A DNA stretch of 64,000 bases from a virus. Location of the stretch: the IMG/VR virus record IMGVR_UViG_3300048925_000129; one strand, given 5' to 3'. Every line of letters begins with the position of its first letter. The stretch's first letter is position 1. Position numbers and translations under genes: made by a program. This document shows, piece by piece, positions 5,240-19,192 of this stretch. The notes beneath the pieces were generated by a model that was given only the letters and a program-made list of their open reading frames with translations, was not told the origin of the DNA and made no database searches.

Positions 5240-5276
5240 TCTTGCAGTGTTAAATTTATGTTAAAGGATTTTCACC

Positions 5277-6953
5277 TTATAGAACTTCTACTCTTTGAAT
5301 CAGTTCCTGAGACAATGCCTCTCTCACTAATTCGGCTGCTGTTTTAATCTTGGTGTTAGTCAAGAATCCTACAGTGGTAGCAGAGTACCCACTGAAGTAG
5401 AATACGTTTTGAACGTCTCCGTAAGTTTCGAACTTCTCTCCAGTCCCTCTACCATAGTATCCTGACTGTAGGTTCCAAAGAACGATTACGAAGCTATCTA
5501 CATACTCTTTAGAGAACCCAGCTCTTCTCAAAGTTTCCTTTGCAGTTTCAACGTTAGTTTTACCTAATTGGCTTGGGTTAAATTCACTATCAGATATACA
5601 TAGGATTCCCGATGGGAAATCTTGTTCTGAAACTCCACTCTGTTTCAACCTAACGAATAGGTTAATTACTGATTGGAAGTTAGTACCCCCAATGTAAGAA
5701 GAGTGATCATTCTTCCATTTGTCTACTGGAGTTTGACCTTTCCAGGTATGCATCTGAGCATCAGAGTTGAACTCGATCCATGCATTTGCAAACTTACCAG
5801 TTAAGAACTCAGAGAAGTAAAGGGCAAGTGCTTTACCAATATCGTAGCAGCTCATCTTAGTTCCAGTAGCTACACTACTCATTGAACCAGATGTATCTCT
5901 TACAACAATTAGATTAGTCTGTCCAGATTCACCACCTTTTTGAACAAGAGTAGTAAACTGCTTGTTAATGGTTTCAACTTCATTAGGAGTAACTGATCTT
6001 CTAGACTGCTTACCTAGACCTTCGAATAACTCGTGAACGAATCCAGTATACTTCACCTCCTTAGTTTCTGGAGCCTTGATCCACTCTGCATACTTGTCAG
6101 AAAGTTTCTGGTTAAATAGGAACTTACCTTGAACAAGTTTTGAAAGAGCTCTACCATGAACTTTGTTGAAGTCAATTCTATCAAATTGCTTTGTAGAGAT
6201 TAGCTTCTGCCATTCATGAGCTGTACCAGAAGTTTTTAACTTTCTGTACTGCTTGTAAGTAGAACCTGCATTTTCTTTAGTACCAAACACAAGTGAGCAG
6301 ATCCACTTTGCAATCATTGTATCAGCCTGAGCTTCTACAGTTTTACAAGATGATTTAGCCTTGATTTGTGGCAAATACTTCTTAATTAAATCACTGGTGT
6401 TTGAATTTTCTAATCCTGAAAGGATAAGTTCACCAAACTTTTTCCAGTTTAATTTTCTTCCGTTCCAACCGTGATGAACAAGGTCATAAGAAAGCATCGT
6501 GAAGATATCTTTCCATGATCCTGCTGAGATCATCAATCCTACGTTAGCCCAGAAAGTTTTTTCATCCTTGAAGTGTAACCATAAGAATCTCATGATACCT
6601 TCATGTCTTAGCTCACCTCCTTTTTGTGATTCGGCAGTCATAGTACCATCTTGATACATTGTCTGTCTTGAGATCATTCTTAAGAAGATAGAGAAAGCTA
6701 CTGCATCCCACTTATCATCTGCCCATAACATTTCGGCATCTCTGGTGATATCCTGGAAAGATCTTGGTGCTTTGAATTTACCCATAACTCCGAACTGGTC
6801 AACTAATGTTGAACCTGTTGAGGAATATTTTAGGGCTCCGTTCCCTGATAGTGTTTCTGCTCCTTTCTTTAAAGATGCATTAACGAATGCAGATGTTGCT
6901 TGTGTGTTTTTTGGAGTTACCTCGAATAAACTTTTTTGTTTGCTGTCGAACAT
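5277..6953 (-). CDS. TROVE-like/vWA protein (DUF2828 family, Ro60-related)
   Basis: N-terminal SGNGALKYSSTG..LVDQF, GSWKD, KKYLP, YRKL motifs; C-terminal vWA MIDAS DTSGS, GGTNF, ISDSEF, IVLWN. Confidence 0.8.
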   Translation of the reverse strand: MFDSKQKSLFEVTPKNTQATSAFVNASLKKGAETLSGNGALKYSSTGSTLVDQFGVMGKFKAPRSFQDITRDAEMLWADDKWDAVAFSIFLRMISRQTMYQDGTMTAESQKGGELRHEGIMRFLWLHFKDEKTFWANVGLMISAGSWKDIFTMLSYDLVHHGWNGRKLNWKKFGELILSGLENSNTSDLIKKYLPQIKAKSSCKTVEAQADTMIAKWICSLVFGTKENAGSTYKQYRKLKTSGTAHEWQKLISTKQFDRIDFNKVHGRALSKLVQGKFLFNQKLSDKYAEWIKAPETKEVKYTGFVHELFEGLGKQSRRSVTPNEVETINKQFTTLVQKGGESGQTNLIVVRDTSGSMSSVATGTKMSCYDIGKALALYFSEFLTGKFANAWIEFNSDAQMHTWKGQTPVDKWKNDHSSYIGGTNFQSVINLFVRLKQSGVSEQDFPSGILCISDSEFNPSQLGKTNVETAKETLRRAGFSKEYVDSFVIVLWNLQSGYYGRGTGEKFETYGDVQNVFYFSGYSATTVGFLTNTKIKTAAELVREALSQELIQRVEVL

Positions 6954-6982
6954 CTTATTATGATTTTTGGTTAATTTTTGAT

Positions 6983-7279
6983 TTAGTTTTTACCATTTCC
7001 CTTTTCTGGAAATTTATGAATTCTAATTGGAAGAAATCCTAATTCTTCACATAAGTTTCTTAAAACTTCTAACTTAGAATCATCTCCTTTTTCTATTTTC
7101 CCATCAAACAAAGCTTCAATTACTTCTCCATCTCCTAAGGAAATAAATCCATTTTGAATATGTCTTTCAGCTAGAAGTGAATATGCTTGAATTTTTGCCT
7201 GAAACTTTACCTGCTCTTTGTTAGCTTCTAATTGAATTCTAATTAGTTCTGCTTGTCTATAAAACTCTTGATCTGTCAT
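6983..7279 (-). CDS. Hypothetical protein (start revised to MTDQEF)
   Basis: Track start at 7309 lies inside the promoter at 7299-7330. Confidence 0.6.
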   Translation of the reverse strand: MTDQEFYRQAELIRIQLEANKEQVKFQAKIQAYSLLAERHIQNGFISLGDGEVIEALFDGKIEKGDDSKLEVLRNLCEELGFLPIRIHKFPEKGNGKN

Positions 7280-7298
7280 TTGTTTAATTATTACTTTG

Positions 7299-7330
7299 CA
7301 AAGATACAAAAAGTTTTCTTAATATGCAAA
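7299..7330 (-). promoter_or_regulatory. Bacteroidota-type promoter for the TROVE operon
   Basis: TTTG-N20-TATCTTTG. Confidence 0.75.
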
Positions 7331-7498
7331 TTTATTTTGTTAAAGTTTTGTTAAAGTTTTTCGATTATAGAGAAGACAATAAAAATTATGTTCTCAACTG
7401 GTATGTTATAAATCCATCTCATAGTATGTAAAATAAAAAATGTTGCTAATATAAGACTTCACATACTAACAACATTCAATCTACCTTCTTGTAGTTTG

Positions 7499-7570
7499 TG
7501 TGATAACGGGACTCGAACCCTGACTACCAATTTCACAGGTTGGCATGCTAACCTTTACATCATTATCACC
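7499..7570 (-). tRNA. tRNA-His(GTG)
   Basis: CCAAC-CTGTGAA-ATTGG arm, T-loop TTCGAGT. Confidence 0.85.
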
Positions 7571-7627
7571 ATATAAAGTATCTTTTATTTAAGGGGTTGA
7601 AAGATACAAAACTATCCCTAATTTTAT

Positions 7628-8020
7628 TTAGTAGTTCACTACTCTTACTGGTTTACCAAGATTTTTCATGAGGTCTATCATATTTTTTGTTCCTCTACTC
7701 TTGCCATCCCAAAAAGCTATAAGTACATCTCCTACTTCGGACATCTCTTCATTCCTAATTGGACCAGCAGCATTCCCATACATTTTCCAGTCGGCTGGCA
7801 TAGGAATAACATTGTGATTACTCTCAGCAGCATAAAGCTCTCCAAGTCCATCTGCTCCAAAGACATTAATACCATCTGATGTGGTAAAAGTCTTGGTTCC
7901 CGTGGAGCATCTTCCTGAAACTATTTCGATGTCTCTATGATTCCTAAGGAAATTATCACATTTTGTTTTAACGAGACGATAATCATTCAGATCTCTGCCT
8001 CCTGCTATTATGACTTTCAT
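7628..8020 (-). CDS. SLOG-family protein (DUF2493/YspA-like)
   Basis: KVIIAGGRD, IVSG, GADGLGE, AAGPIRNEEM, AFWDGKSRGTKNMI. Confidence 0.85.
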   Translation of the reverse strand: MKVIIAGGRDLNDYRLVKTKCDNFLRNHRDIEIVSGRCSTGTKTFTTSDGINVFGADGLGELYAAESNHNVIPMPADWKMYGNAAGPIRNEEMSEVGDVLIAFWDGKSRGTKNMIDLMKNLGKPVRVVNY

Positions 8021-8442
8021 TAGGCTTCAGCAATTGCTTGCTTGATCTCATCAGCTTTATTAATACCTTTACACTCCTTGTTGATCATACCAAATAGTTT
8101 ACCTTCGTGGATGCCTGGATTATCTTCTTTAGTTTGTTTAACCAAAGACACTAATTCAGAATAGGTTAAGGCCTGAGGTAAGTACGACTCAAGAACTTTT
8201 AATTCTGATTCTTCCTTAACAGCAAGATCTATTCTTTTAGAAAGAGTGTAGGCATCAATAGATTGATTCCTTTTCTTAATTTCCCTAGAGATAAGTTTCG
8301 TAACTTCATCTTCAGTTAAATCTCTTCTTAAAGCTATTTTCTCGTTGTCTACTACACTTATTAAAAGTGACAGGGTTGTTTTTGCTACTATATCTTTTGC
8401 CTTTAAAGCTTTTACGTAGTCTTGTCTGATCTTTGATTCCAT
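8020..8442 (-). CDS. YqeY/GatB-domain tRNA-binding protein
   Basis: KALKAKD...EIKKRNQSIDAY..SKRIDLAVKEESELKVLESYLPQ. Confidence 0.85.
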   Translation of the reverse strand: MESKIRQDYVKALKAKDIVAKTTLSLLISVVDNEKIALRRDLTEDEVTKLISREIKKRNQSIDAYTLSKRIDLAVKEESELKVLESYLPQALTYSELVSLVKQTKEDNPGIHEGKLFGMINKECKGINKADEIKQAIAEA

Positions 8443-8469
8443 TTTACTTTTGTTTTAATTATTGATTAG

Positions 8470-8540
8470 TGCAGGTAGGGAGAATCGAACTCCCGACTAA
8501 ACATTGGAAGTGTCCCGTGATACCACTTCACCACACCTGC
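8470..8540 (-). tRNA. tRNA-Gly(TCC); 5' half overlaps the HNH gene 3' end
   Basis: GCAGGTG/TACCTGC acceptor, loop CTTCCAA, GGGAG-TTCGATT-CTCCC T arm. Confidence 0.85.
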
Positions 8541-8958
8541 CTATTCTTTCCTGATAATGTAAGTCCCTATGACAGTTGGAACATAAAACCTCACATTTCT
8601 CTATTTCTTTTAATGCTCTAGATTTAGAACCACTCTTAAACAGAGCTCCAACTTCAGTATCCTTCTCGTCTGGATTAATATGGTGAAAATCTAAGACCCA
8701 CCATCTATCCTCTGGACATCTATTACATTTTAAATTTTTCTTTATTTCGAAAAATTCTTCCATAGAAGTTTGTCTATAAGCTTTAGATTTAGAAATATAT
8801 TTAGCTTTGTTAGCTTCATAATGTTTCTTTCTATATTCTTTCTGACATTCTCTACATTGCCACTGTAGAATTGTTTTTGTTTTCAATTTTTTAGTAGCAA
8901 AAAACTCTTCTGTCTCTGGTAATTCTTTTTTACAAGAACCACATATCTTCGTACACAT
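8497..8958 (-). CDS. HNH homing-type endonuclease with N-terminal Zn finger
   Basis: CGSC...CREC; CNRC...LDFHHINP.EK...EIEKCEVLCSNCHRDLH; start revised to MCTKIC, downstream of promoter 8974-9005. Confidence 0.85.
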   Translation of the reverse strand: MCTKICGSCKKELPETEEFFATKKLKTKTILQWQCRECQKEYRKKHYEANKAKYISKSKAYRQTSMEEFFEIKKNLKCNRCPEDRWWVLDFHHINPDEKDTEVGALFKSGSKSRALKEIEKCEVLCSNCHRDLHYQERIGRCGEVVSRDTSNV

Positions 8959-8973
8959 ATTTATTAATTTATA

Positions 8974-9005
8974 CAAAGATACAAAAAAGGTATCGAACTT
9001 CCAAA
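8974..9005 (-). promoter_or_regulatory. Promoter of the HNH cassette
   Basis: TTTG-N20-TATCTTTG. Confidence 0.7.
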
Positions 9006-9022
9006 CACATAAAATTAATTAT

Positions 9023-9065
9023 TAGGCTTGGAAGGCTAGAGTATTAACCACTATACGATACCTGC
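9023..9065 (-). pseudogene. Orphan 5' half of tRNA-Gly(TCC)
   Basis: GCAGGTA TCGTATAGTGGTTAATAC T CTAGC CTTCCAA GC, then AT-rich sequence with no T arm. Confidence 0.8.
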
Positions 9066-9160
9066 AATTATAATAGACCATCATACTCTCACTAATGTGA
9101 TTCGTGCACCTGATATACCTTGGGTATATAAGTAGATAGTTTTAGGGGCAACTATTATTG

Positions 9161-9234
9161 TCTCCAGTATAGGATTTGAACCTATGACAACTTCCTTATC
9201 AGAGAAGTGCTCTACCAGACTGAGCTAACTGGAG
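9161..9234 (-). tRNA. tRNA-Ile(GAT)
   Basis: CTCCAGT/ACTGGAG acceptor, loop CTGATAA. Confidence 0.9.
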
Positions 9235-9259
9235 TTAAACCAGGTTTCCCTGGTATGTT

Positions 9260-9496
9260 TTATTTTTTATAGTGAATGTAAGATTTCACTCCTTTCATGG
9301 CTGCATCTTCTACAAGCCTCAAAGCTAAAGTTTTCAAACTCAAAATTTCAGAAGCTTCGTCTGGATTTAAATCTGCTGTCACATTATCATTAATGTAGTC
9401 GAAAAGCTCAATAGCTCTTTGTTTAATTCCATCAATTACTCCTTCACCTGAAGGGTTGAAATCACCAATTCTTTTTTGTCCTAAAGTTTTTTCCAT
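9260..9496 (-). CDS. Acb2/Tad1-like helical-hairpin anti-defence sponge candidate
   Basis: TLGQKRI..FNPSG...IDGIKQRAIEL...LALRLVEDAAM.GVK pattern. Confidence 0.55.
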   Translation of the reverse strand: MEKTLGQKRIGDFNPSGEGVIDGIKQRAIELFDYINDNVTADLNPDEASEILSLKTLALRLVEDAAMKGVKSYIHYKK

Positions 9497-10257
9497 TATA
9501 TATCTTTTCTTGTTACAATAAAATCTTCTATTGAGTTATCCTCTTCTAAAATTAGCTTACCAAATCCTGGAGCTATAATAAAATGTGTCCTATCATTTTG
9601 GTCTTCAGCAGGAATAATATCTGAAAAACCTGATTTTTTTGAAATTTCCATTTGGTCTTTAGTAAGTAGATAGATAAGTTCCATTAACTTCAAGTGGTTA
9701 GTTTTAACTTCCATTACTCTTTCTGTCCAAGGAATATGTCTTCCAGTATAATACACAAAGTGAATATGATTCCTTAATGTACCTCTTATATCAGTTTCAT
9801 CTGGATAAGGTTCTGTATTAAATCCATGTGAATGCCACATGTATTCACCTTTATCATTGGTTTCTTTATACTCAACATATAATTTACCCGTTTCACCAGC
9901 ATAGTACCTTTTCAAAACTTCTTCATGTTGTTTAGAAACATCAAATTGTACAGTATCAAATAAGTTTCCAGTAGAAGAATATTCTCCTAATACAAAACCA
10001 ATTCTTATCCATTTATCTGTACTTTGGATATCTTCTTTTGCTAAATAGACATCAGGATCAGTTGTTACTAACACAACTGCTTTAGCATCTTCAGTGACTA
10101 TAAATTGAACACCGTACATGGCATCATCTGTATAAACAGTATTTGGATCACTGAATATTCCTTTGAATATCTCTATTGGAATTCTAGATCCATCAATACC
10201 TAAGTAAATACTTGGGTCTCTTCCTTCTTTTTCTTTGTAAAATCTTTCTCGTATCAT
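9496..10257 (-). CDS. Hypothetical protein
   Basis: 253-aa ORF coupled to both neighbours. Confidence 0.75.
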   Translation of the reverse strand: MIRERFYKEKEGRDPSIYLGIDGSRIPIEIFKGIFSDPNTVYTDDAMYGVQFIVTEDAKAVVLVTTDPDVYLAKEDIQSTDKWIRIGFVLGEYSSTGNLFDTVQFDVSKQHEEVLKRYYAGETGKLYVEYKETNDKGEYMWHSHGFNTEPYPDETDIRGTLRNHIHFVYYTGRHIPWTERVMEVKTNHLKLMELIYLLTKDQMEISKKSGFSDIIPAEDQNDRTHFIIAPGFGKLILEEDNSIEDFIVTRKDI

Positions 10258-10463
10258 TTGTTAAAAATTTCATCTGAAAATAAATCAAGAATCCTATCTG
10301 GTTCTCCCCAATCGTGACCTCCATATTTGTGCACTTTAAACTCTTCAAAAGAGGCTATATTATAACCCTCTTGACCATGAATTACTTTTAGGTAAATAAA
10401 TCTTAATCTATACCACCAGTAAACCCTGAATTTATCATACTCATCTAATTCCTGAAATTTCAT
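10254..10463 (-). CDS. Hypothetical protein
   Basis: 69-aa ORF immediately after promoter-like motif 10468-10499. Confidence 0.6.
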   Translation of the reverse strand: MKFQELDEYDKFRVYWWYRLRFIYLKVIHGQEGYNIASFEEFKVHKYGGHDWGEPDRILDLFSDEIFNK

Positions 10464-10521
10464 TTTACAAATTTAAGAAACTTTTTTGACATGTGCAAGT
10501 TTTTAACAAACTTTAACATTG

Positions 10522-10593
10522 TAGACCTACTAGGATTCGAACCTAGATACCCTGAGTCAAAGTCAGGTGTACTAACCGTTGTACGATAGGTCT
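10522..10593 (-). tRNA. tRNA-Gln(TTG)
   Basis: CCTGA-CTTTGAC-TCAGG arm. Confidence 0.9.
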
Positions 10594-10596
10594 GTT

Positions 10597-10670
10597 TGGA
10601 GCCCAGAACAGGATTCGAACCTGTGTACCTAGTTTTGCAGACTAGTGTCTAACCACTCGACCACCTGGGC
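10597..10670 (-). tRNA. tRNA-Cys(GCA)
   Basis: CTAGT-CTGCAAA-ACTAG arm, U73, encoded CCA. Confidence 0.9.
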
Positions 10671-10676
10671 AGCTTG

Positions 10677-10748
10677 AGCCTCTATCAGGAATCGAACCCG
10701 AATCTCAAGATTACAAATCATGTATAATAGCCGTTATACTACAGAGGC
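10677..10748 (-). tRNA. tRNA-Thr(TGT)
   Basis: GCCTCTG/TAGAGGC acceptor, loop TTTGTAA. Confidence 0.88.
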
Positions 10749-10752
10749 AAAT

Positions 10753-10793
10753 AAAAAATCCCTTGCAAAGTCGGTTGAGGATTCACAAGGGAT
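10753..10793 (-). terminator. Attenuator terminator B, directly upstream of tRNA-Thr
   Basis: ATCCCTTGTGAA/TTTGCAAGGGAT 12-bp stem plus T-tract. Confidence 0.85.
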
Positions 10794-10825
10794 AGAAATT
10801 TATAAAAAATAAATTTGTGTATTGT

Positions 10826-10915
10826 CTATTCATAAATGACATCAGACAAAATCATCCCTGTTGAGTGCCCCTGGCAGCCAATAGTTATCTCGATATGTTG
10901 TCTAGTTGTTGTCAT
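10826..10915 (-). CDS. Leader peptide B (29 aa): MTTTRQHIEITIGCQGHSTGMILSDVIYE*
   Basis: A-rich start context, lies between promoter and terminator; first 17 codons are only M,T,R,Q,H,I,E,G,C. Confidence 0.8.
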   Translation of the reverse strand: MTTTRQHIEITIGCQGHSTGMILSDVIYE

Positions 10916-10935
10916 TGTTTAAATTTTTACTTCTG

Positions 10936-10967
10936 CAAATATACAAAATGTTTTTGACATATGCAAA
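10936..10967 (-). promoter_or_regulatory. Promoter for leader B / tRNA block B
   Basis: TTTG-N20-TATATTTG. Confidence 0.8.
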
Positions 10968-10998
10968 TTTCTAAAAGAAATTATTAGTTAAAGTTTTG

Positions 10999-11220
10999 TT
11001 AAAAATAATAATACCAGTATTCATCGTGGAATAGCTGCATTTCTTGTTTTAAATTAATCTGCTTTTGGTGCTTATACATCCTATTGCCCTCACAAATGTT
11101 GCATCCACCATTATGTTCACAGAATTTAGATGGTCTTGTTCTGCTTCCATCTCTTACTGTTTTTAAGTGGTTAACACCCATCCATCTATGCTGAGATGGT
11201 TTTCTATAAGTTCTACTCAT
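10999..11220 (-). CDS. Small Cys/His-rich hypothetical protein
   Basis: MSRTYRK...CEHNGGCNICEGNR. Confidence 0.7.
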   Translation of the reverse strand: MSRTYRKPSQHRWMGVNHLKTVRDGSRTRPSKFCEHNGGCNICEGNRMYKHQKQINLKQEMQLFHDEYWYYYF

Positions 11221-11236
11221 AAAAATAATTTAAGTG

Positions 11237-11320
11237 AGGAAGACAGAGAGCACGATTCCCAGACCCTGAGGTCCCATTTGTTTAGCAAACAAAGTCTATA
11301 CCCCGATAGATTTAACTTCC
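11237..11320 (-). tRNA. tRNA-Ser(GCT), somewhat degenerate
   Basis: TTTGT-TTGCTAA-ACAAA arm, long variable arm, atypical T-loop. Confidence 0.7.
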
Positions 11321-11328
11321 ATAATATG

Positions 11329-11409
11329 AGGAGGAAGTGGGACTCGAACTCTCAGACCCAGAGGGTCACAGTTTTCAAGACTGCTGCAATACCATTCTGC
11401 CAATCCTCC
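11329..11409 (-). tRNA. tRNA-Ser(TGA), chimeric-looking T stem
   Basis: GCAGT-CTTGAAA-ACTGT arm, GACCC/GGGTC variable arm, mismatched T stem GAGAG/CCCAC. Confidence 0.8.
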
Positions 11410-11415
11410 GAATTG

Positions 11416-11772
11416 TTATTTTACAAAGATAGCCGTCTTACCAATAACTTCGTCTATATTTAGGTAGACAATTCTATCTTCTTTTTGTATATAGATGGCT
11501 AAAATGTCAAACTCATCAACTTCTATTTTATAGATAGTATTAGTATTTTTGTTTGATCTAATTCTTCTTAGCTCTATGTTATATTTGCCCAAACTATTTG
11601 GATCTTTGATAGTTGATTTAACAGATACTCTTTTAGACTCTCCATCTTTATAGATGAACAAATCAAAAGGTGCTTTACCACTCACTTGATTAAAAATGTG
11701 ATAACCTTTACTAGCTAAATCAGCCATTACTTTAATCTCACCTAATTGAGAATACATTGTTTTATTATCCAT
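11416..11772 (-). CDS. PD-(D/E)XK homing-type endonuclease (I-Ssp6803I / PDDEXK_5-like)
   Basis: GEIKVMADL..KGY.IF....GKAPFDLFIYKDG..KRVSVKST...FDILAIY. Confidence 0.75.
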   Translation of the reverse strand: MDNKTMYSQLGEIKVMADLASKGYHIFNQVSGKAPFDLFIYKDGESKRVSVKSTIKDPNSLGKYNIELRRIRSNKNTNTIYKIEVDEFDILAIYIQKEDRIVYLNIDEVIGKTAIFVK

Positions 11773-11799
11773 AGCTCTTCATCCAGCCAGATTCCCTCC
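11773..11799 (-). pseudogene. Probable orphan 5' fragment of a tRNA-Ser
   Basis: GGAGGGAATCTGGCTGGATGAAGAGCT directly abuts the endonuclease ATG; GGAGGGA pairs with the 3' acceptor strand TTCCTCC of the downstream tRNA-Ser. Confidence 0.55.
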
Positions 11800-11856
11800 A
11801 ATTAAAAGCCCCAGAAATTGTGCATGCAAGCAAAGGCATCTGGGGGATTGATATTT

Positions 11857-12369
11857 TTATTTTAGCAAGTACTGCTCCCAATCTTTAGGAATTGTACCTA
11901 GATGTTTTATAAACATCAAGTAATGTGGTCTTTTAGGATTTGGATGTTCCTTACCCCACTCTTCTATTGTTAAGTCATTTTTTTCCGAGTTACACGGTTT
12001 ACATGCAGTAACTAAGTTGTCCCAAGTGTCTTTTCCACCTTTCGATTTAGGAATAACGTGGTCGATAGTCATTGCTCTTATTTCGTCTTCTCCACAATAC
12101 ACACAAGTGTAGTTATCTCTTTTGAAAACATTGTCCCTGTTACAAGGAACTTTGTGGATATCCAGGTTAATGAACCTTGGAACCCTGATAACTGATGGTC
12201 TGAAGATCTCTAAATCTGGATTAACCAAACCAAACTTCTCTGGGTGTTCATGCAGGATGTCTGCATTACCCTTAAGAGAAACTACATAAGCTCTTTCAGA
12301 TGTCACAATTTGTCTGGGTAAGTACTGTGAATCTAACACCAAGCACTTACGAAAATCTACTTTTTTCAT
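11857..12369 (-). CDS. HNH endonuclease (McrA-like); start revised to MKKVDF
   Basis: CLVLDSQY, NVFKRDNYTCVYCG, TIDHVIPKSKGG..TWDNLVTACKPCNSEK; track extension overlaps tRNA-Leu. Confidence 0.85.
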   Translation of the reverse strand: MKKVDFRKCLVLDSQYLPRQIVTSERAYVVSLKGNADILHEHPEKFGLVNPDLEIFRPSVIRVPRFINLDIHKVPCNRDNVFKRDNYTCVYCGEDEIRAMTIDHVIPKSKGGKDTWDNLVTACKPCNSEKNDLTIEEWGKEHPNPKRPHYLMFIKHLGTIPKDWEQYLLK

Positions 12370-12389
12370 TGTTACACTTTTTTGATTAG

Positions 12390-12470
12390 TACTGATAGTA
12401 GGACTCGAACCTACACCCCTTTCGGGAACAGTTTCTAAGACTGCCGTGTCTACCATTCCACCATACCAGC
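12390..12470 (-). tRNA. tRNA-Leu(TAG)
   Basis: GCAGT-CTTAGAA-ACTGT arm, long variable arm. Confidence 0.9.
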
Positions 12471-12586
12471 ATTTCCCCTAATTGCTTTTTGATACCAACC
12501 ACTGTCAGGCTATGAACCTTCATAAGTCAAGGGGATCGAACCCTTAGTTCATCAATATCCTACTACTTCAATTTGGATAGGATTTG

Positions 12587-12666
12587 TACTCCCACTGGGA
12601 CTCGAACCCAGACCCCGAAGGATAAGATTTTAAGTCTTACGTGTCTACCAATTCCACCATGAGAGC
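12587..12666 (-). tRNA. tRNA-Leu(TAA)
   Basis: TAAGA-CTTAAAA-TCTTA arm. Confidence 0.9.
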
Positions 12667-12672
12667 ATTTTG

Positions 12673-12745
12673 TGGACCGACAGGGGATCGAACCCTGGTT
12701 TAAAGTTTGCAAAACTTTGGTTTTAGCCAATTAAACTACCAGCCC
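12673..12745 (-). tRNA. tRNA-Ala(TGC)
   Basis: Loop TTTGCAA, G3:U70 pair present. Confidence 0.9.
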
Positions 12746-12747
12746 AA

Positions 12748-13023
12748 TTATTTATTATCTTTGTTTCTTCCAATGTGATACCCATCACAGAAGACACATT
12801 TGTAAGTGCTAAAGTGCACTCCTTTCTTTTTCCCCATACTAATTGCTGACTTCAAAGCAGTCTCCTTGGTATTATACATAACCTTAGGCTTACCTGTATC
12901 TGCCCTCTGATGAGAATTTTTATGGAACATTCCCCAGGCATTTCTGGTAATAAAGAAATTTTTAATGAATCTCTTGAGTGGAAGCTGATCCTTCAATGCT
13001 ATTACTATGTTCTTTAGTTTCAT
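12748..13023 (-). CDS. Small Zn-ribbon protein
   Basis: YKCVFCDGYHIG. Confidence 0.7.
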   Translation of the reverse strand: MKLKNIVIALKDQLPLKRFIKNFFITRNAWGMFHKNSHQRADTGKPKVMYNTKETALKSAISMGKKKGVHFSTYKCVFCDGYHIGRNKDNK

Positions 13024-13231
13024 ACTCTCCTTTTATAATTCTTACTATGTCCTTTGGTGATACTACTGTGCATCGTTTCATTACATCTTGAATTCTACCT
13101 TTAGGTATATCGTAATGATTTTTATGAAACCAGCAAATGTTGATCCCAAGGTCTCTAGCCATTTTATGCAGATTCTGTTTAGAATATGGCAAGCAGACTA
13201 GATGTCTTTTGTTATCACAAATATATTTCAT
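12962..13231 (-). CDS. DUF4031-like protein
   Basis: HLV......LHKMARDLGI...WFH..HYDIP. Confidence 0.65.
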   Translation of the reverse strand: MKYICDNKRHLVCLPYSKQNLHKMARDLGINICWFHKNHYDIPKGRIQDVMKRCTVVSPKDIVRIIKGEYETKEHSNSIEGSASTQEIH

Positions 13232-13233
13232 TG

Positions 13234-13304
13234 TACCTCGTAAAGGAATCGAACCTTTTCCACTTGTATGTAAGACAAGGAAGCTACCGTTACATCAACG
13301 AGGC
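13234..13304 (-). tRNA. tRNA-Val(TAC)
   Basis: CTTGT-CTTACAT-ACAAG arm. Confidence 0.88.
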
Positions 13305-13365
13305 ATACAACTATGTGAGTCCTAACTAAACTTATCTCACTTTTACTGGAACCCGTAGGTAGTTT

Positions 13366-13563
13366 TTAAATGTTGTTATTCCAGGTTCTATATCCTGTGG
13401 AAGGGTCAGTATCGACTTTCTTTCCAACAAATGTTATCTCCCAGAATTCTTCACCCAACTCTAGTAGTTGAACAAAATTTCCTTTCTTGGCATGTTTAGA
13501 ATCAATCCAGCATTGTGTGAATTCTTCTTTGCCTTTTTTCTTAAATGTGCATTGTGCCCACAT
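13366..13563 (-). CDS. Hypothetical protein
   Basis: 65-aa ORF with A-rich start between tRNAs. Confidence 0.65.
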   Translation of the reverse strand: MWAQCTFKKKGKEEFTQCWIDSKHAKKGNFVQLLELGEEFWEITFVGKKVDTDPSTGYRTWNNNI

Positions 13564-13580
13564 AACTTTAATTTTTACTG

Positions 13581-13654
13581 TGCCCCCAGAAGGACTCGAA
13601 CCTTCAGTCTACATCTTAAAAGGATGTTGCTTTAACCAATTCAGCTATAGGAGC
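13581..13654 (-). tRNA. tRNA-Lys(TTT)
   Basis: ACATC-CTTTTAA-GATGT arm. Confidence 0.9.
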
Positions 13655-13766
13655 TTTTCTTTCGATTTAGAGCAGAAATCGAACCCGAAACATATACTGC
13701 CTAGATTTCTTAATCCCCGAAAACGACCTTGCCTCAAGGCTTACAGCTTTAACTGATGGATTTTTG

Positions 13767-13838
13767 TCGGGTAGACAGGACTCGAACCTGCATCCTCTTG
13801 CTTCCAATGCAAGTAATCGACCATTGATATACTACCCG
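13767..13838 (-). tRNA. tRNA-Pro(TGG)
   Basis: CGGGTAG/CTACCCG acceptor, loop ATTGGAA. Confidence 0.9.
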
Positions 13839-13845
13839 TAATATG

Positions 13846-13927
13846 TGAGGCATGTAGGATTCGAACCTACTCAGCAATTGCAACTGTTTTACAGACAGTC
13901 TCAGCTCTCCAACTCTGACGATACCCC
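13846..13927 (-). tRNA. tRNA-Tyr(GTA)
   Basis: ACTGT-CTGTAAA-ACAGT arm, long variable region. Confidence 0.9.
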
Positions 13928-13935
13928 GTTTAAAT

Positions 13936-14013
13936 TGGTGGGTCCACTGGGAATCGAACCCAGTCCTACAGTTTTTCAGACTATCGTGCAGACCTTAATT
14001 ACACCTTAGACCC
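13936..14013 (-). tRNA. tRNA-Phe(GAA)
   Basis: ATAGT-CTGAAAA-ACTGT arm, encoded CCA. Confidence 0.9.
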
Positions 14014-14065
14014 AATCGTACAGTTACGTTTCCAAATAGGAAAGAGGCTTGACTGTACATCATTG

Positions 14066-14138
14066 AGGGAGAAGTGGGATTCGAACCCACACAAATCGAC
14101 TTAACAGGTCGGTGCTCTACCATTACAGCTATTCTCCC
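14066..14138 (-). tRNA. tRNA-Asn(GTT)
   Basis: CCGAC-CTGTTAA-GTCGA arm. Confidence 0.9.
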
Positions 14139-14151
14139 GAATAAAAATTTG

Positions 14152-14223
14152 CACGTCCCACAGGATTCGAACCCGTACCAAAAGTTTTGGAGACTCCTAT
14201 GCTACCATTAACACCAGAGACGT
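14152..14223 (-). tRNA. tRNA-Trp(CCA)
   Basis: GGAGT-CTCCAAA-ACTTT arm, G73. Confidence 0.88.
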
Positions 14224-14230
14224 ATGTTTG

Positions 14231-14306
14231 CCGTGATAGAGGGATTCGAACCCTCGTTTTTGAAGAGTGACAGTCTAAATCCCCATCCAATGGAGCATAT
14301 ACCACG
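14231..14306 (-). tRNA. tRNA-Asp(GTC), irregular D arm
   Basis: Loop CTGTCAC, GAGGG-TTCGAAT-CCCTC T arm. Confidence 0.75.
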
Positions 14307-14314
14307 AGTTATAT

Positions 14315-14352
14315 AAAAATAAAAATCCCTACGAATTTTACTAAGTAGGGAT
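14315..14352 (-). terminator. Attenuator terminator A, directly upstream of tRNA-Asp
   Basis: ATCCCTAC/GTAGGGAT stem followed by TTTTATTTTT. Confidence 0.85.
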
Positions 14353-14385
14353 ATTAATCAAAAAAACTAAAACTATGAACCAAAA

Positions 14386-14502
14386 TCATGTTTGTGTGCT
14401 TTTACTTAATCCTACTATTGTAGAGCTATTATCCCATAACTTATCTGCCCCCAGTACACTAGGGTTAAAGGCAAACGAATAAAAGTTATAAGAGTTTTTC
14501 AT
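14386..14502 (-). CDS. Leader peptide A (38 aa): MKNSYNFYSFAFNPSVLGADKLWDNSSTIVGLSKSTQT*
   Basis: A-rich start, lies between promoter and terminator; codons 2-27 contain all 11 amino acids of the downstream tRNA block and only one other (Gly). Confidence 0.82.
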   Translation of the reverse strand: MKNSYNFYSFAFNPSVLGADKLWDNSSTIVGLSKSTQT

Positions 14503-14520
14503 TGTATATTTTTTACTTTG

Positions 14521-14621
14521 CAAAGATATGAAATTAATTTCACATATGCAAATTTAATTGGTTAAATTTTTGTTAAATTTTTAGTAATGCAAAGATAGGA
14601 AATAAAATCCAAAAAAGCAAA
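14521..14621 (-). promoter_or_regulatory. Two tandem promoters for leader A / tRNA block A
   Basis: TTTG-N20-TATCTTTG at 14521-14552 and 14590-14621. Confidence 0.8.
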
Positions 14622-14637
14622 TACATAAAACTTTTTA

Positions 14638-14847
14638 TTAAAAGTATTCTTCATCAATGAAGAAATCCTCTTCATCTTCCTCCTCATCAATAAGGTGTAG
14701 TAGAGACTCATCTAAGTTTGAGTAAATACTACTGAACAAGGTTTTATCCTTATCCCAAATTCCAGTAGCTTCTGGTAAAACTGATTCCAGTTCACCTGAG
14801 TCCAGGAATGTATCATACAGATCTCTAAGTTTTGGGTTGTTCTCCAT
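14638..14847 (-). CDS. Small acidic hypothetical protein
   Basis: 69-aa ORF with D/E-rich tail. Confidence 0.7.
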   Translation of the reverse strand: MENNPKLRDLYDTFLDSGELESVLPEATGIWDKDKTLFSSIYSNLDESLLHLIDEEEDEEDFFIDEEYF

Positions 14848-15088
14848 AACCTTTCTTTTTTAAATCATTAATTATAAATAGATACTCATCTTCCATTTTA
14901 GTAGAAGGTTCCTCATCTAATCTATAATTTATCACTTCTTTCCCACTTCCATTATCAAGGACTGTTTTGACTAAGAATTTAGGGGGTTTGGTAGCAGTTT
15001 TTACGTGCAATACACTTTTAACCCCCTTCATTTTTCTTATTACATTTAGCCAATGATTATGGAAAGCCATATCATATAAGCCTTTCAT
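14825..15088 (-). CDS. Hypothetical protein
   Basis: 87-aa ORF in operon. Confidence 0.65.
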   Translation of the reverse strand: MKGLYDMAFHNHWLNVIRKMKGVKSVLHVKTATKPPKFLVKTVLDNGSGKEVINYRLDEEPSTKMEDEYLFIINDLKKKGYGEQPKT

Positions 15089-15099
15089 ACTTCAAATTT

Positions 15100-15912
15100 T
15101 TAGAATGGACTATCATCATCTTCTGCTACTGCATTGGCTGCAAAAGGATTTTCACCTGTTGTAGTTGCTGTAACTGGAGTTTGTGTAGCCACTGGTGTTG
15201 TAGTTGGTTGAGTTTCTTCAGGAGCAGCTTCTGCCCATTCTTTGTAAAACTCAGATTGGTATACATTACCAGCTTTGAAATCTTCGTATCTCTTTAACTC
15301 ATACATTAGAACTTTAGACAGGAAAGTATCCTGAGCTTTGTAGTCCATTGTTTTTTGGCTTGGATTGATTGGGTCCTGTTCAACTATGAACATAGGAACG
15401 TTTCCTTTCTCTCCGAACTTTAATGAGAATTTGATTGGTTGATCTTTGTCTTGTCCTTCCTCTTGCTTATATCTGAAGTAAAGAATCTTGTCAACATATC
15501 CTCTTTGATTTTTATCCCTGTTTGAAGAGATGATAATCGACTTAGAGTAATCTAAGCTAGGAAGGATAGCAATTAGTTTCTTAACTTCATCATTTAATCC
15601 ACCTTTTATACTTTTAAGTGGTAGCTGAATTACATCAACTCCCGAAGGATCTTCATCAGATTGTACTGACAATTCTACGTAGCTAACTTTTCCTTTTGGG
15701 AATGTTTTCTCAGTAATTGCAAGGTATGAAACCTTACCGTAGTCTGTACTCTTATAAGGCTTTTGATAAGTCTTTCTTTCGTTTGCAGTACCTGCATCTA
15801 GAACGATCTCATTAAATCCTTCTTTAGGCTCTTTTGAGCTCTCATATAGTTCCCCTTTAGAGTTGATTCTTAGAAATGTAAAATTTCTCCCTGTTCCGAA
15901 TTCTTTTGCCAT
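15100..15912 (-). CDS. Probable single-stranded DNA-binding protein
   Basis: P/T-rich linker and acidic C-terminal tip AEDDDSPF; own promoter 15951-15982; near recA. Confidence 0.65.
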   Translation of the reverse strand: MAKEFGTGRNFTFLRINSKGELYESSKEPKEGFNEIVLDAGTANERKTYQKPYKSTDYGKVSYLAITEKTFPKGKVSYVELSVQSDEDPSGVDVIQLPLKSIKGGLNDEVKKLIAILPSLDYSKSIIISSNRDKNQRGYVDKILYFRYKQEEGQDKDQPIKFSLKFGEKGNVPMFIVEQDPINPSQKTMDYKAQDTFLSKVLMYELKRYEDFKAGNVYQSEFYKEWAEAAPEETQPTTTPVATQTPVTATTTGENPFAANAVAEDDDSPF

Positions 15913-15998
15913 GTTGTAAACTTTTTATTAATTAGTTATTTATTAGATTGCAAATGTACAACTTTATTTTGACATATGCAAATACATAAAAGTTAATT

Positions 15999-16496
15999 TT
16001 ATGTTAAAAATTTTTGTATTTCTTCTGTAGTTAAAAATATGTCTTCGTCATTCTCGTAAGCCTCCCACTCTTCTTTAGTTAAAATACTTGGTAATCTAGC
16101 TTCAACTGCTTCCACTAAAGGGTACTTTACTTTATAAAGTAACTTATCTTCTGTGAAATCCAATTTAATTTTACCTGTTCCAGGTCTTACGGATACTCTT
16201 CTTGATGTCGTGTGTACCATTCCTGTAGTTCCAGGAACAAGATACTTTGGGCATTTAACAGTAACAAATAAGTCGAACGCTGCACTAAAGATACTGCCAC
16301 ATGCAACTAACTGAAATTGTTCTGGGTCATATGATTCGAAAAGCTCTCTAAGCATTTCTGCAATTATACATTTACCTCCTGGGGAATCAAGCCATACTTC
16401 AAACTTCATCCCTTCTGGTAACTCGTTCTGAAACTGAAGAAATGTTTCAAACACATCCTCGTTCAATTCATCATTCCAATAAAATCTCCTTATCAT
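15999..16496 (-). CDS. ClpP-like serine protease
   Basis: WLDSPGG, GSIFSAA (Ser), GMVH (His), EDIFLTTEE. Confidence 0.75.
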   Translation of the reverse strand: MIRRFYWNDELNEDVFETFLQFQNELPEGMKFEVWLDSPGGKCIIAEMLRELFESYDPEQFQLVACGSIFSAAFDLFVTVKCPKYLVPGTTGMVHTTSRRVSVRPGTGKIKLDFTEDKLLYKVKYPLVEAVEARLPSILTKEEWEAYENDEDIFLTTEEIQKFLT

Positions 16497-16929
16497 AATC
16501 TAAATCTCTTCTATAAAATTTACCTAAAATATTGTCATTATAAAAGTCATCTGACTCAAGAACACCATAAGAGAATAAACATTGAGATTCATAATAAGTG
16601 ATTTGTTTCTTAGTGAAACACACTTTTAGAATTTCTTTCTTAACTAAATGAGCTCCATCATCCATTGATCCTTTCATTTCTCTTCCAGATGACCCTGCAT
16701 AGGTCTGCCACCTGACTTCCTTCTGGACTATTTCATAGGTTTTTAATCTTTTGTCTGTAATTAGAGCCAACTCCTTTTTAGTAAAATTTCTTTTAGTATA
16801 AGAGTACATAGATTTTCTTCCAATGTATTTCTTCCCATTTGAGAAGTGTAACATGTAAATAAACCCTATGGCTCCTTCAGGGAAGTCTTTAATGTGTTTG
16901 ACTTCCCTTCCTTTAAGAGTCCAATTCAT
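16471..16929 (-). CDS. GIY-YIG family endonuclease-like protein
   Basis: GFIY...GKKYIGRK, WQTYAGSS, FYNDNILGKF. Confidence 0.7.
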   Translation of the reverse strand: MNWTLKGREVKHIKDFPEGAIGFIYMLHFSNGKKYIGRKSMYSYTKRNFTKKELALITDKRLKTYEIVQKEVRWQTYAGSSGREMKGSMDDGAHLVKKEILKVCFTKKQITYYESQCLFSYGVLESDDFYNDNILGKFYRRDLDYDKEILLE

Positions 16930-16935
16930 TTTGTG

Positions 16936-17901
16936 TTATTTTAATTTTTGAGTAATCTCCTCAACTAACTCAGGATTATCCTTAAGCATTTGAGCAGCCT
17001 TTGGAGCCCCTTGTGCAATGTTTGTTCCATCATAGCTAATCCAAGATCCATTCTTTTGAACGACACCTTTTTTGATAGCAAATTCTAGGAAATCTTGCAT
17101 CTTGTCAACTCCTTCGTTGTAGTATACACTAACAACTGTTTCTTTAAAAGGAGCAGCAATTTTATTCTTGATCACTTTAATTTTCATCAAGTAACCAATA
17201 ACAAGATCTCCATCCTTTATTAATTGTCCTTTTCTTACATCAATTCTCTGAGAAGCATAAAACTTCATTGCATTACCACCAGTTGTAGTCTCAGGATTAC
17301 CAAACATAATTCCAATCTTTTCCCTTAACTGGTTAATGAAAATCACAGTAGTGTGAGTTTCATTTGTTTTTGCTGTAATTTTTCTAAGTGCTTGAGCCAT
17401 AAGTCTTGCAACCTCACCCATTTTCTTAGTTCCCATTTCATCTTCAAGTTCTGATTTAGGAGTCACAGCAGCAATGGAGTCAAAAACAATGATGTCAAAC
17501 AATCCTGACTCAATCATTTTATCTAAAATTTGTAATGCTTCTTCTCCAAATCCTGGTTGGTTTACAACTAGCTTATCTAAATCAACTCCTAATTTCTTAG
17601 CATAACTTGCATCAAAAGCCTGCTCAACATCCACGAAAGCACAAATTTTTCCTTCCTTCTGAGCTTCTGCAATAGCCATAAGAGTTAATGAAGTTTTCCC
17701 AGAAGACTCTGGACCATAAATCTCAATAATTCTACCTTTAGCAAAACCTCCTCCCATACAATCATCAATAGAGTAAACTCCAACTGGATTACATTCTACT
17801 TGTTGAGTGTTTGCATTTCCTAGAACTATTAAACTTCCTTCTCCAAAGCTTTTATTCATAGATGTTAGGAACTCATCTAAACTTAATTTCTTTTCTGCCA
17901 T
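16936..17901 (-). CDS. recA: RecA recombinase
   Basis: GRIIEIYGPESSGKT, DSIAA, FINQLREKIGIMFGNPETTTGGNAMKFYASQR. Confidence 0.97.
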   Translation of the reverse strand: MAEKKLSLDEFLTSMNKSFGEGSLIVLGNANTQQVECNPVGVYSIDDCMGGGFAKGRIIEIYGPESSGKTSLTLMAIAEAQKEGKICAFVDVEQAFDASYAKKLGVDLDKLVVNQPGFGEEALQILDKMIESGLFDIIVFDSIAAVTPKSELEDEMGTKKMGEVARLMAQALRKITAKTNETHTTVIFINQLREKIGIMFGNPETTTGGNAMKFYASQRIDVRKGQLIKDGDLVIGYLMKIKVIKNKIAAPFKETVVSVYYNEGVDKMQDFLEFAIKKGVVQKNGSWISYDGTNIAQGAPKAAQMLKDNPELVEEITQKLK

Positions 17902-17902
17902 A

Positions 17903-18640
17903 TTATTTTACTTTGTCTATTTTATCTAATTCTTTTTGTATGTAAAACTTTGTGGATTTTGGGAAGTCAGCAGTTAAAGCCCACCTTGCATATGAAGGGT
18001 CTTTAATAACAGGTTGATCTTTACATTTACCCATAGCCCAACATATTTCTCCATCAATGTATTTTAGTTTACCTAGAGGATCTACAAGATCATCCTTAAT
18101 ACCAAATGCAAAATTAAAATCTGCTGAATGGATGTCTAGGTTATGTGTTTCTATTTGTGCTTTTAAAACCTCCATAGAAGCTTTACAATCGGCTAATGCT
18201 GAGTGTGCATCATCTAAGTCTTTTCCAGTATATTGTTTGTATAGATATGATAGATTTCTAGGCTTGAGGACGGACTCAATTACAAGAGTATCCAATGTCC
18301 TATATTCACTAATATCAAAAGGAAAATCACTTAACAAACATTTCTCCGCAAGTAAAGGTAAATCAAACCGTCTGATATTCTGTCCACAGATAATTTTTCC
18401 TTTAATGAGTTGTAAAACAGTTGGTATAACCTCATGAAAATAAGGCATATGTTCAACCATTTCATTTGTTATTCCATGAATTGCAGATACATCTTCTGGT
18501 ATTGGCTTGAAGGTCTTACAAAGAGTTCTGAATTCTTTTTCTATTTTAAAATCTTTGTCATAATTGACAACAGCTACCTCACAAATCTCGTCTAGAGTTA
18601 GGTTTAATCCTGTTGTCTCAAAATCTATTGTTGAAAACAT
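17903..18640 (-). CDS. DEDDh 3'-5' exonuclease (DnaQ/epsilon-like)
   Basis: IDFETTG, IHGIT, NIRRFDLP, DAHSALAD. Confidence 0.92.
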   Translation of the reverse strand: MFSTIDFETTGLNLTLDEICEVAVVNYDKDFKIEKEFRTLCKTFKPIPEDVSAIHGITNEMVEHMPYFHEVIPTVLQLIKGKIICGQNIRRFDLPLLAEKCLLSDFPFDISEYRTLDTLVIESVLKPRNLSYLYKQYTGKDLDDAHSALADCKASMEVLKAQIETHNLDIHSADFNFAFGIKDDLVDPLGKLKYIDGEICWAMGKCKDQPVIKDPSYARWALTADFPKSTKFYIQKELDKIDKVK

Positions 18641-18731
18641 AATTTACTTTTTTGCAAATATAAGAAAAATTTCTGACATATGCAACAAAAAAATGAGAAA
18701 GTACAAAAAAATTTATACTTTCCCAAATTAA

Positions 18732-18980
18732 CTAACAATTAATACTTGACTTGAAATTTTTTATGAAGGATTCAATAATCCTTGCACATACCTTTGGTGT
18801 TAGGAGTTCCTGCCTTTCTCCATTGGGAAAGGTGATGCTTGCCTTCGAATACAAGTCATAAAGGTCGAAGGTCATAGCATAGAATTCATCCTCATGCCTT
18901 TGCCATAATTCGTCATCCACAATGTGTTCGGATACATAATCCCAAACATCATTGAAGAATTCATCGTAACTTACTATCAT
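18732..18980 (-). CDS. Hypothetical acidic protein (start revised to MIVSY)
   Basis: ORF downstream of promoter-like 18999-19030. Confidence 0.6.
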   Translation of the reverse strand: MIVSYDEFFNDVWDYVSEHIVDDELWQRHEDEFYAMTFDLYDLYSKASITFPNGERQELLTPKVCARIIESFIKNFKSSINC

Positions 18981-18998
18981 TGTGTGTGTGGTTTTGTG

Positions 18999-19172
18999 CA
19001 AAGGTATGCAAAAATTTTGAGATCACCAAATTTATAACAAAAAATATTTTTAAAATAATACTTGCATAATTCAAAATAATTTCGTACATTTGCAAAACGA
19101 TTGAAAATTCTACCAAAAACATAAAATTTTTTGTTAGGTATTTGGTCATGTTAAAAAAAAGTATTATATTTG
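18999..19172. promoter_or_regulatory. Divergent promoter cluster at the strand switch
   Basis: Minus-strand motif 18999-19030; plus-strand motifs 19061-19092 and 19141-19172. Confidence 0.75.
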
Positions 19173-19192
19173 CAAAGTCAAATGTGACACTT

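Follow-up and report, generated by a model that had tools for sequence, protein, structure and literature searches.

The 64,000-nucleotide stretch of viral DNA from the IMG/VR record IMGVR_UViG_3300048925_000129 (hereafter, the window) is a part of a ~160-kb phage with a Bacteroidota-type host and carries, on its minus strand, two cassettes (A and B) in which a short open reading frame (ORF) precedes a block of tRNA genes. Our analysis suggests that both cassettes are probably ribosome-mediated transcription attenuators, in which the codons of the leader probe the tRNAs of the block behind it. This core of the original prediction, which had been made without database searches, found support in the amino acid composition of the leaders, the conservation of the leader ORFs in related phages, the restriction of their substitutions to the respective amino acid sets, the co-variation of Arg codons with tRNA-Arg, the conserved terminator, the presence of a segment complementary to the terminator arm, and the independent occurrence of such cassettes in the phage LR745206.1.

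Anatomy and amino acid composition of the leaders

Both cassettes, and all their elements described below, are located on the minus strand and exhibit the same order: a Bacteroidota-type promoter, a short ORF, an intrinsic terminator, and a tRNA block. The promoter of leader A (14521–14552) exhibits the -33 element TTTG and the -7 element TAtcTTTG and is kept in all nine sequences of the leader A alignment; a second promoter-like site is located just upstream (14590–14621). The promoter pattern, TTTG N15-25 TAnnTTTG, occurs 23 times in the window vs 7.05 occurrences expected. The leader A ORF extends from the ATG at 14502 to the end of the TGA stop codon at 14386 (38 codons plus TGA) and is followed by the terminator at 14313–14352 (AUCCCUAC, a 12-nt loop, GUAGGGAU, then UUUUUAUUUUUAU), i.e. 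by an 8-bp stem (14325–14352, -8.8 kcal/mol) with a U tract after it; this stem is conserved in the relatives, partly with compensatory changes. In cassette B, the promoter (10936–10967, TTTGCATATGTCAAAA...TAtaTTTG) is followed by an ORF of 29 codons plus TAG (10915–10826) and by the terminator at 10749–10793 (stem AUCCCUUGUG...GCAAGGGAU, then UUUUUUAUUU), whose stem-loop (10758–10793), followed by a U tract, has a predicted energy of -12.8 kcal/mol and whose arms co-vary among the relatives (UUGU/GCAA vs UUAC/GUAA). Both terminators combine a G+C-rich stem with a U tract; they were found by a custom scan and missed by the standard one, as their loops are longer than 8 nt. A-rich 5' leaders precede both leader ORFs. 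Thus, the coordinates, the folding and the pattern scan agree with the originally predicted order of elements, and both cassettes possess two hallmarks of an attenuator: a short ORF with its start codon directly after the promoter and ahead of the regulated genes, and an intrinsic terminator between this ORF and the tRNA genes. The cmscan search of window positions 1–20000 (E-values up to 1) identified neither a T-box nor any of the Rfam leader families (His, Trp, Thr, Leu, Phe) in the regions 10749–10967 and 14313–14552.

Block A (11236–14306) comprises genes for tRNA-Asp(GTC, degenerate), Trp, Asn, Phe, Tyr, Pro, Lys, Val, Ala, Leu(UAA), Leu(UAG), Ser(UGA) and Ser(GCU, degenerate), interspersed with small ORFs and genes for an HNH endonuclease and a PD-(D/E)XK endonuclease. 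The proximal part of block B (7498–10748) encodes tRNA-Thr, Cys and Gln, and then Ile, Gly and His, with a terminator-like hairpin near 7440 as its end, while the distal tRNAs sampled by leader B (2357–4368) include Glu, an amber suppressor (CUA, 4061–4134), CAT, CAT, Arg(UCU) and CAT. With default settings, ARAGORN identifies 22 tRNA genes between 2357 and 14223. tRNA-Phe(GAA) (13939–14013) is detected by Rfam only (54.5 bits), and tRNA-Asp(GTC) (~14230–14306) is weak, with a below-cut-off Rfam score of 26.2 bits at 14236–14300 and a call by the relaxed ARAGORN only, but it is syntenic with robust tRNA-Asp genes of the relatives. Likewise, the degenerate tRNA-Ser(GCU) (11236–11320) is called at the relaxed threshold and has good Ser(GCU) genes as syntenic counterparts in two relatives. 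Hence, the predicted partition of the 20 amino acids into 11 and 9 holds for the two tRNA sets, while the claim that block A encodes exactly 11 depends on the sub-threshold tRNA-Asp.

The sensor part of leader A (codons 2–26/27) contains K, N, S, Y, F, A, P, V, L, D and W plus one Gly, while its tail, from codon 28 on, shows no compositional constraint; the sensor part of leader B (codons 1–17) contains only M, T, R, Q, H, I, E, G and C. The original prediction, which equated these residues with the 11 amino acids of block A and the 9 of the remaining tRNAs, was confirmed statistically: P=1.5e-6 for at least 25 of 26 residues belonging to set A with all 11 members present, and P=3.4e-7 for 16/16 residues belonging to set B (1.9e-8 if all eight non-Met members are also required). 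When all ATG-initiated ORFs of at least 20 aa in the six frames of the window (n=360) were scored for the best N-terminal enrichment in either tRNA set, leader B ranked first and leader A second, each for its own downstream set (-log10 P of 6.96 and 4.42, respectively, with 3.59 for the next ORF). The limits at codon 27 and codon 17 had been picked post hoc in the original prediction; they fall where the RNA structure changes its role (see below), and the complete ORFs, without any cut-off, are still enriched (B: 22/28, P=2.9e-5; A: 30/37, P=0.0065). The agreement extends to the codons: Arg is always encoded by AGA, which fits tRNA-Arg(UCU); Leu is sampled as CUN and UUA, which fits tRNA-Leu(UAG) and tRNA-Leu(UAA); Ser is sampled as UCN and AGY, of whose tRNAs Ser(UGA) is robust and Ser(GCU) is the relaxed-threshold call; and Ile appears in leader B in all three codons, AUC, AUU and AUA, with three CAU tRNAs encoded downstream. 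An enrichment in codons that report on the regulated function, another hallmark of attenuators, is seen not only in the window, but also in its relatives and in LR745206.1.

Conservation in relatives and recurrence in an unrelated phage

Relatives were identified via the 270-aa protein encoded just upstream of leader A, whose homologues (57–86% identity) are found on contigs of up to 160 kb. Nine relative loci with DNA available were used, and leader B was assessed in the eight whose locus extends that far. In one relative record (157 kb, rated complete), 23 of the 24 tRNA hits are located within this single region. The leaders are maintained as ORFs throughout: leader A (36–43 aa) is present in 9/9 relatives and leader B (29 or 42 aa) in 8/8, all differences in length are multiples of three, the start, the frame and the stop are kept, and in seven relatives leader A had already been called as a gene by independent gene callers. 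The sensor residues belong to their own set in 206/221 cases for leader A and in 128/129 cases for leader B, while the residues of the tails do so at the background level (47/103 and 45/108, respectively). If every residue type other than the commonest one at a variable sensor column is regarded as a minority residue, 14 of the 15 such residues in leader B belong to the set vs 36% expected from single-nucleotide neighbours (P=7e-6), and so do 25 of the 31 in leader A vs 53% expected (P=0.0016). Synonymous changes are frequent, and many of the minority residues represent radical changes in chemistry (T to R, I to G or R, H to E, A to Y, S to P). This pattern is indicative of selection on set membership rather than on a folded peptide.

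The relative L006 provides the one clean case of co-variation between the leaders and the tRNA genes. Here, tRNA-Arg(UCU) is located near the head of block A; two AGA codons have appeared in leader A, and AGA has disappeared from leader B. Together with the set-restricted substitutions, this case supports the proposed correspondence between leader composition and tRNA content in related phages. Most of the tRNAs missed in L006 were recovered by the relaxed ARAGORN. At the position of tRNA-Gln (L006:16293–16365), this locus exhibits a gene with a Gln-type acceptor stem (AGACCT...AGGTCT) and a UUU (Lys) anticodon, which may represent an anticodon switch. In five relatives (L003, L006, L007, L008 and L009), a tRNA-Met(CAU) gene is located between the leader B promoter and the ORF, ~20 nt before the ATG (e.g. 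L003:7190–7350, L006:15780–15975). This tRNA would be made regardless of attenuation, and its processing would release the leader mRNA.

The distant-mode blastn search of the GenBank phages revealed only tRNA and small-gene matches to the window, a weak one of which pointed to LR745206.1, a published 634-kb uncultured phage of an unrelated lineage, which shares the promoter type of the window and has 61 tRNA hits. In LR745206.1, a promoter, a short ORF and a terminator stand ahead of all six tRNA blocks examined (leader cassettes at L010:18224–18340, L010:37227–37322, L011:881–976, L011:2131–2205, L012:1030–1116 and L012:2082–2165). With whole, untrimmed peptides, the true assignment of leaders to blocks is the best of the 720 possible ones, and each of the six columns has its maximum on the diagonal; the correspondence between leader composition and tRNA content, a test of which had been proposed along with the original prediction, thus holds here, too. 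One of these leaders has 23 of 24 residues in the seven-member set of its block (P=5e-9), and its codons 27–30 form a perfect copy of the 3' arm of the terminator (duplex energy -15.6 kcal/mol, p=0.002). All six leader peptides open with M-[K/T/N]-[T/N]-[I/M/N/L]-[N/S/T], whatever the block, which is perhaps an initiation-friendly A-rich start.

The proposed switch, its scope and its alternatives

According to the attenuator model, the transcript from each promoter would begin with the short ORF, which would be translated, and its sensor codons (2–26 in A, 2–17 in B) would represent the amino acids, and largely the very codons, decoded by the downstream phage tRNAs. The segment just past the sensor codons would be able to pair with the 5' arm of the terminator. 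If a charged cognate tRNA is scarce, the leading ribosome would be delayed within the sensor, leaving this segment free to pair with the emerging arm; with the arm captured, no terminator would form and the RNA polymerase would enter the tRNA block. Under fast decoding, the segment would be masked by the ribosome in time, so that the terminator would form and transcription would stop. As the product is the very tRNA under test, such a device would provide a negative-feedback, demand-driven tRNA supply, multiplexed over 11 and 9 amino acids. From the anatomy of the cassettes we infer that the ORFs are translated, in which direction the switch works, that the mid-leader hairpins serve timing, and what the biological trigger may be. 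Candidate triggers are the cleavage of host tRNAs, a mismatch in codon usage and host shut-off, and the device would respond to any slow decoding; one may speculate that its purpose is counter-defence, i.e. the replacement of tRNAs cut by host anticodon nucleases.

Candidate elements of such a switch can be delineated in both leaders. In leader A, regions 1 and 2 (14405–14423) form a small CUAC-loop-GUAG hairpin (14412–14423), which by analogy would correspond to the 1:2 pairing of the trp attenuator, while AGUAGGAUUAAG (14405–14416) can alternatively pair with the 5' arm of the terminator and the bases preceding it, and is therefore a candidate antiterminator. In leader B, region 2 (10852–10863, CAACAGGGAUGA, i.e. 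CAACAGGGAU) is complementary to the 5' arm AUCCCUUGUG of the terminator; the best duplex of this arm with the leader B ORF involves codons 18–22. In leader A of the relative L007, the complementarity is kept with different sequences (CAGGGA with UCCCUG). For the folding, the nascent RNA was taken as far as the terminator loop, and a ribosome footprint covering -15 to +12 relative to the A site was moved along the ORF. With the A site on codons 1 to ~25 (A) or ~15 (B), the 5' arm of the terminator is predicted to be paired upstream (P 0.5–0.9), with AGUAGGAUUAAG in A, extending the conserved intermediate helix, and with CAACAGGGAU in B; once the A site is beyond codon ~26 (A) or ~15 (B), the pairing falls to P 0.0–0.3. 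This drop coincides with the end of the compositional constraint in the window and in nearly all the relatives. The predicted release of the arm by a ribosome that covers the segment is in line with a race between decoding and antiterminator formation.

Both leaders contain additional internal hairpins. The one in leader A (14449–14464) spans codons 13–18 (Asn-Pro-Ser-Val-Leu-Gly), is 100% paired in nine sequences, exhibits two covarying pairs (UA:6/CG:3 and UA:4/UG:3/GU:2), and is probably a polymerase pause or timing element; its presence accounts for the sole out-of-set Gly codon of leader A. The hairpin in leader B (10861–10881) covers codons 12–19. The 33-nt stretch between the stop codon of leader A and the terminator (14353–14385, CATGATTTTGGTTCATAGTTTAGTTTTTTGATTA...), which forms the intermediate helix, is near-invariant in the relatives, including the most divergent one. 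A long hairpin of leader A codons 4–7 with codons 21–24, suggested by the minimum free energy structure, was dropped because of mismatches in the relatives (e.g. TCG for TCT).

Several observations weigh against the attenuator model or restrict it. In the full-length equilibrium folding, the terminator wins at every position of the ribosome (P of 0.88 or more, dipping slightly at codons 24–25), hence the switch must be kinetic. The best duplexes of the arm with the leader in the window (-8.8 kcal/mol in A and -9.9 kcal/mol in B) are no better than those of dinucleotide shuffles (p ~0.25), while duplexes stronger than those of the shuffles (p 0.002–0.04) are found for leader A of L006 and L007, leader B of L003, and leader 1 of L010. 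Leader A possesses a second antiterminator candidate, UGGGAUAA (14429–14436), and either of the two might form the antiterminator; moreover, the folding model predicts read-through for the untranslated RNA, unlike in the trp attenuator. Among the relatives, residues outside the set occur at codon 3 of leader A in L001 (Thr) and at codon 2 of leader B in L006 (Asn), while in block A of L007 tRNAs for Asp, Trp, Asn and Phe could not be detected, yet its leader keeps their codons. In addition, several tRNAs of the window (Asp and Ser(GCU)) were called at relaxed thresholds only.

The scope of control is a further restriction. The custom scan revealed minus-strand terminator-like hairpins with U tracts, within the tRNA region and at its end, at 11807–11845, 7440–7475, 4205–4240, 3182–3205 and 1695–1724, which split block B into several transcription units, and the pattern search identified further promoters at 8974–9005, 7299–7330 and 5208–5239; another promoter-like site (near 10468–10500) and protein genes separate tRNA-Gln from the Ile, Gly and His genes. 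Given the internal promoters and the hairpins at 7440, 4205 and 3182, leader B would directly gate only Thr, Cys and Gln; Ile, Gly and His are perhaps controlled by read-through, and Glu, the suppressor, the CAU tRNAs and Arg would be coupled to leader B at best indirectly. Nevertheless, the codons of the distal tRNAs (GAG/GAA, AGA, AUA) are conserved in leader B. In block A, the Ser tRNAs may be uncoupled from leader A by the hairpin at 11807. The original caveat that the distal tRNAs need not depend on leader B, which had been based on the promoters, is thus reinforced by the hairpins. A third attenuator before the distal Met and Arg tRNAs was considered and rejected, as the hairpin at 3182 closes an 82-aa ORF and is accompanied by neither a leader-like ORF nor a promoter match.

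Could the same anatomy work with the reversed polarity? Efficient translation of the leader might promote read-through, e.g. if the ribosome melted the terminator, and the cassettes would then be a positive-feedback or timing switch committing the phage to tRNA production upon the appearance of its first tRNAs, with leader B acting after suppression of its amber stop codon by the phage tRNA(CUA). Indeed, the stop codon of leader B is TAG in seven of the eight relatives, yet only 3 of the 52 window ORFs of at least 100 aa end with TAG, block B includes the amber suppressor, and the frame past the TAG (10826–10828) is open across the terminator. On the other hand, according to the footprint folding a ribosome on the sensor favours the antiterminator and one farther on frees the terminator arm, the stop codon of leader A is TGA, located 40 nt ahead of the terminator, with no TGA suppressor encoded, and positive feedback would give no cause to sample every amino acid of the block; we regard this possibility as unlikely. 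The TAG may also have a place in the attenuator model, as leader B may sample the amber suppressor via its conserved stop codon.

Somewhat different considerations apply to a translation-independent riboregulator that would directly bind a protein or a tRNA (T-box-like, or recognized by a phage antiterminator protein), with the ORFs being incidental. Both leaders include parts with highly conserved nucleotide sequences, leader A contains the covarying hairpin, and the long conserved stretch after its stop codon has no assigned role, all of which speaks for such an element. However, the constraint operates at the level of the amino acid set, and the frequent synonymous and radical in-set non-synonymous changes require in-frame reading; neither leader matches any Rfam family at E-values up to 1, the T-box and known leaders included, and LR745206.1 follows the same compositional logic with unrelated sequences, which makes this explanation decidedly unlikely. 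It is very unlikely that the leaders are ordinary small genes or chance ORFs followed by plain terminators, insulators or processing sites, with a coincidental match of composition sharpened by the choice of the cut-offs. The post hoc limits, the sub-threshold tRNA needed for the 'exact' match and the antiterminator duplexes of the window, which are within the range of chance, all speak for coincidence, but the enrichment of the whole ORFs, their ranks among the 360, the set-restricted substitutions in the relatives and the cut-off-free test in the unrelated phage speak against it, and a plain terminator would make no sense if placed behind a promoter and ahead of the sole genes that this promoter could transcribe.

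Other features of the tRNA region deserve mention. Besides Asp, Phe and Ser(GCU), the degenerate tRNA genes of this phage family include a Ser/Sec-like element (3094–3173), all of them visible only by Rfam or the relaxed ARAGORN; standard tRNA callers under-count the tRNA set of this family. Lone GGTTCGAT T-arm motifs are present in two spacers (13655–13765 and 12471–12585). The region also contains genes for the HNH and PD-(D/E)XK endonucleases, probably homing elements, and for YqeY-like, SLOG/YAcAr-like and weakly PTH2-like (peptidyl-tRNA hydrolase) proteins (11416–12369, 3692–4006 and 7628–8442). A sub-threshold Rfam match to YrlA (Y RNA-like; 39.4 bits, cut-off 69) was found at 4730–4841, downstream of the gene for a 558-aa DUF7788 protein (5277–6953) and the phage promoter at 5208–5239; the DUF7788 gene and the YrlA-like match could possibly constitute a phage Ro/Y-RNA-like module inside the tRNA region.

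Relationship to known systems and possible biological role

Multivalent leader-peptide attenuators are known from the enterobacterial operons ilvGMEDA (Ile/Leu/Val), thr (Thr/Ile) and ilvBN (Val/Leu). They share with the phage cassettes the promoter, the short leader rich in regulatory codons and the intrinsic terminator and, if the attenuator model holds, also the translation of the leader, the mutually exclusive RNA pairings, and the logic in which slow decoding of any of several amino acids leads to read-through. However, the enterobacterial leaders contain runs of one to three amino acids and regulate biosynthetic enzymes, whereas the phage leaders hold 9–11 amino acids, each 1–4 times, jointly cover all 20, and would regulate tRNAs, i.e. 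exert feedback on the decoder itself. Moreover, the host type of the phage, Bacteroidota, lacks Shine-Dalgarno sequences, and no sequence similarity to the enterobacterial leaders was found in the Rfam leader-family search. The attenuator of the E. coli phenylalanyl-tRNA synthetase operon pheST, with its Phe-rich leader, likewise controls a component of the translation apparatus rather than a biosynthetic pathway, but it senses one amino acid and belongs to a protein-coding, cellular operon. T-box riboswitches resemble the proposed device in that they sense the status of tRNA and choose between a terminator and an antiterminator ahead of translation-related genes, but they bind the uncharged tRNA directly and do not need translation, while the phage leaders are constrained in the encoded amino acids. 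A parallel to the race logic suggested above for those sensor codons that lie at a distance from the antiterminator is the his-leader 'speedometer' assay, in which read-through reports the ribosome transit time over the leader codons (PMC4046918); the speedometer is an engineered assay on a His run, whereas the phage leaders are apparently a natural test strip of mixed codons. The full-text literature search revealed no description of leader-peptide control of tRNA genes, or of a test strip for 9–11 amino acids.

Phage tRNA arrays can replace host tRNAs that have been depleted or cleaved, as exemplified by T4 and PrrC, the T5 tRNAs and PARIS, and the mycobacteriophage tRNAs that resist anticodon nucleases. 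This is the very context in which a demand-driven tRNA supply would pay, but the studies of these phages concern the tRNAs themselves. To our knowledge, the regulation of phage tRNA genes is essentially uncharted and the arrays are usually regarded as constitutive cargo; we know of no regulatory leader described for them.

A leader-peptide attenuator before tRNA genes would extend a textbook mechanism to a new class of targets and, if our interpretation is true, the ribosome transit time over an ORF with mixed codons can act as a multiplexed sensor. It would also provide a testable link between decoding stress (codon mismatch, host shut-off or anticodon nucleases) and the expression of phage tRNAs. 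In practical terms, the composition of a leader predicts the content of its block, which could serve as an annotation rule and help to find degenerate tRNAs such as the weak Asp and Ser(GCU), and the cassettes, which are compact natural parts, could find a second use as sensors that monitor the availability of tRNAs inside cells. It appears likely that large phages of Bacteroidota-type hosts generally put their tRNA arrays under such 'codon test-strip' attenuators, in which the leader ORFs test each amino acid, and each isoacceptor family, represented in the block and transcription proceeds only when decoding is slow. In the phage studied here, the two leaders together would audit all 20 amino acids, and the attenuators would provide a self-tuning supply of tRNAs and, possibly, a sensor of host defences that target tRNA.

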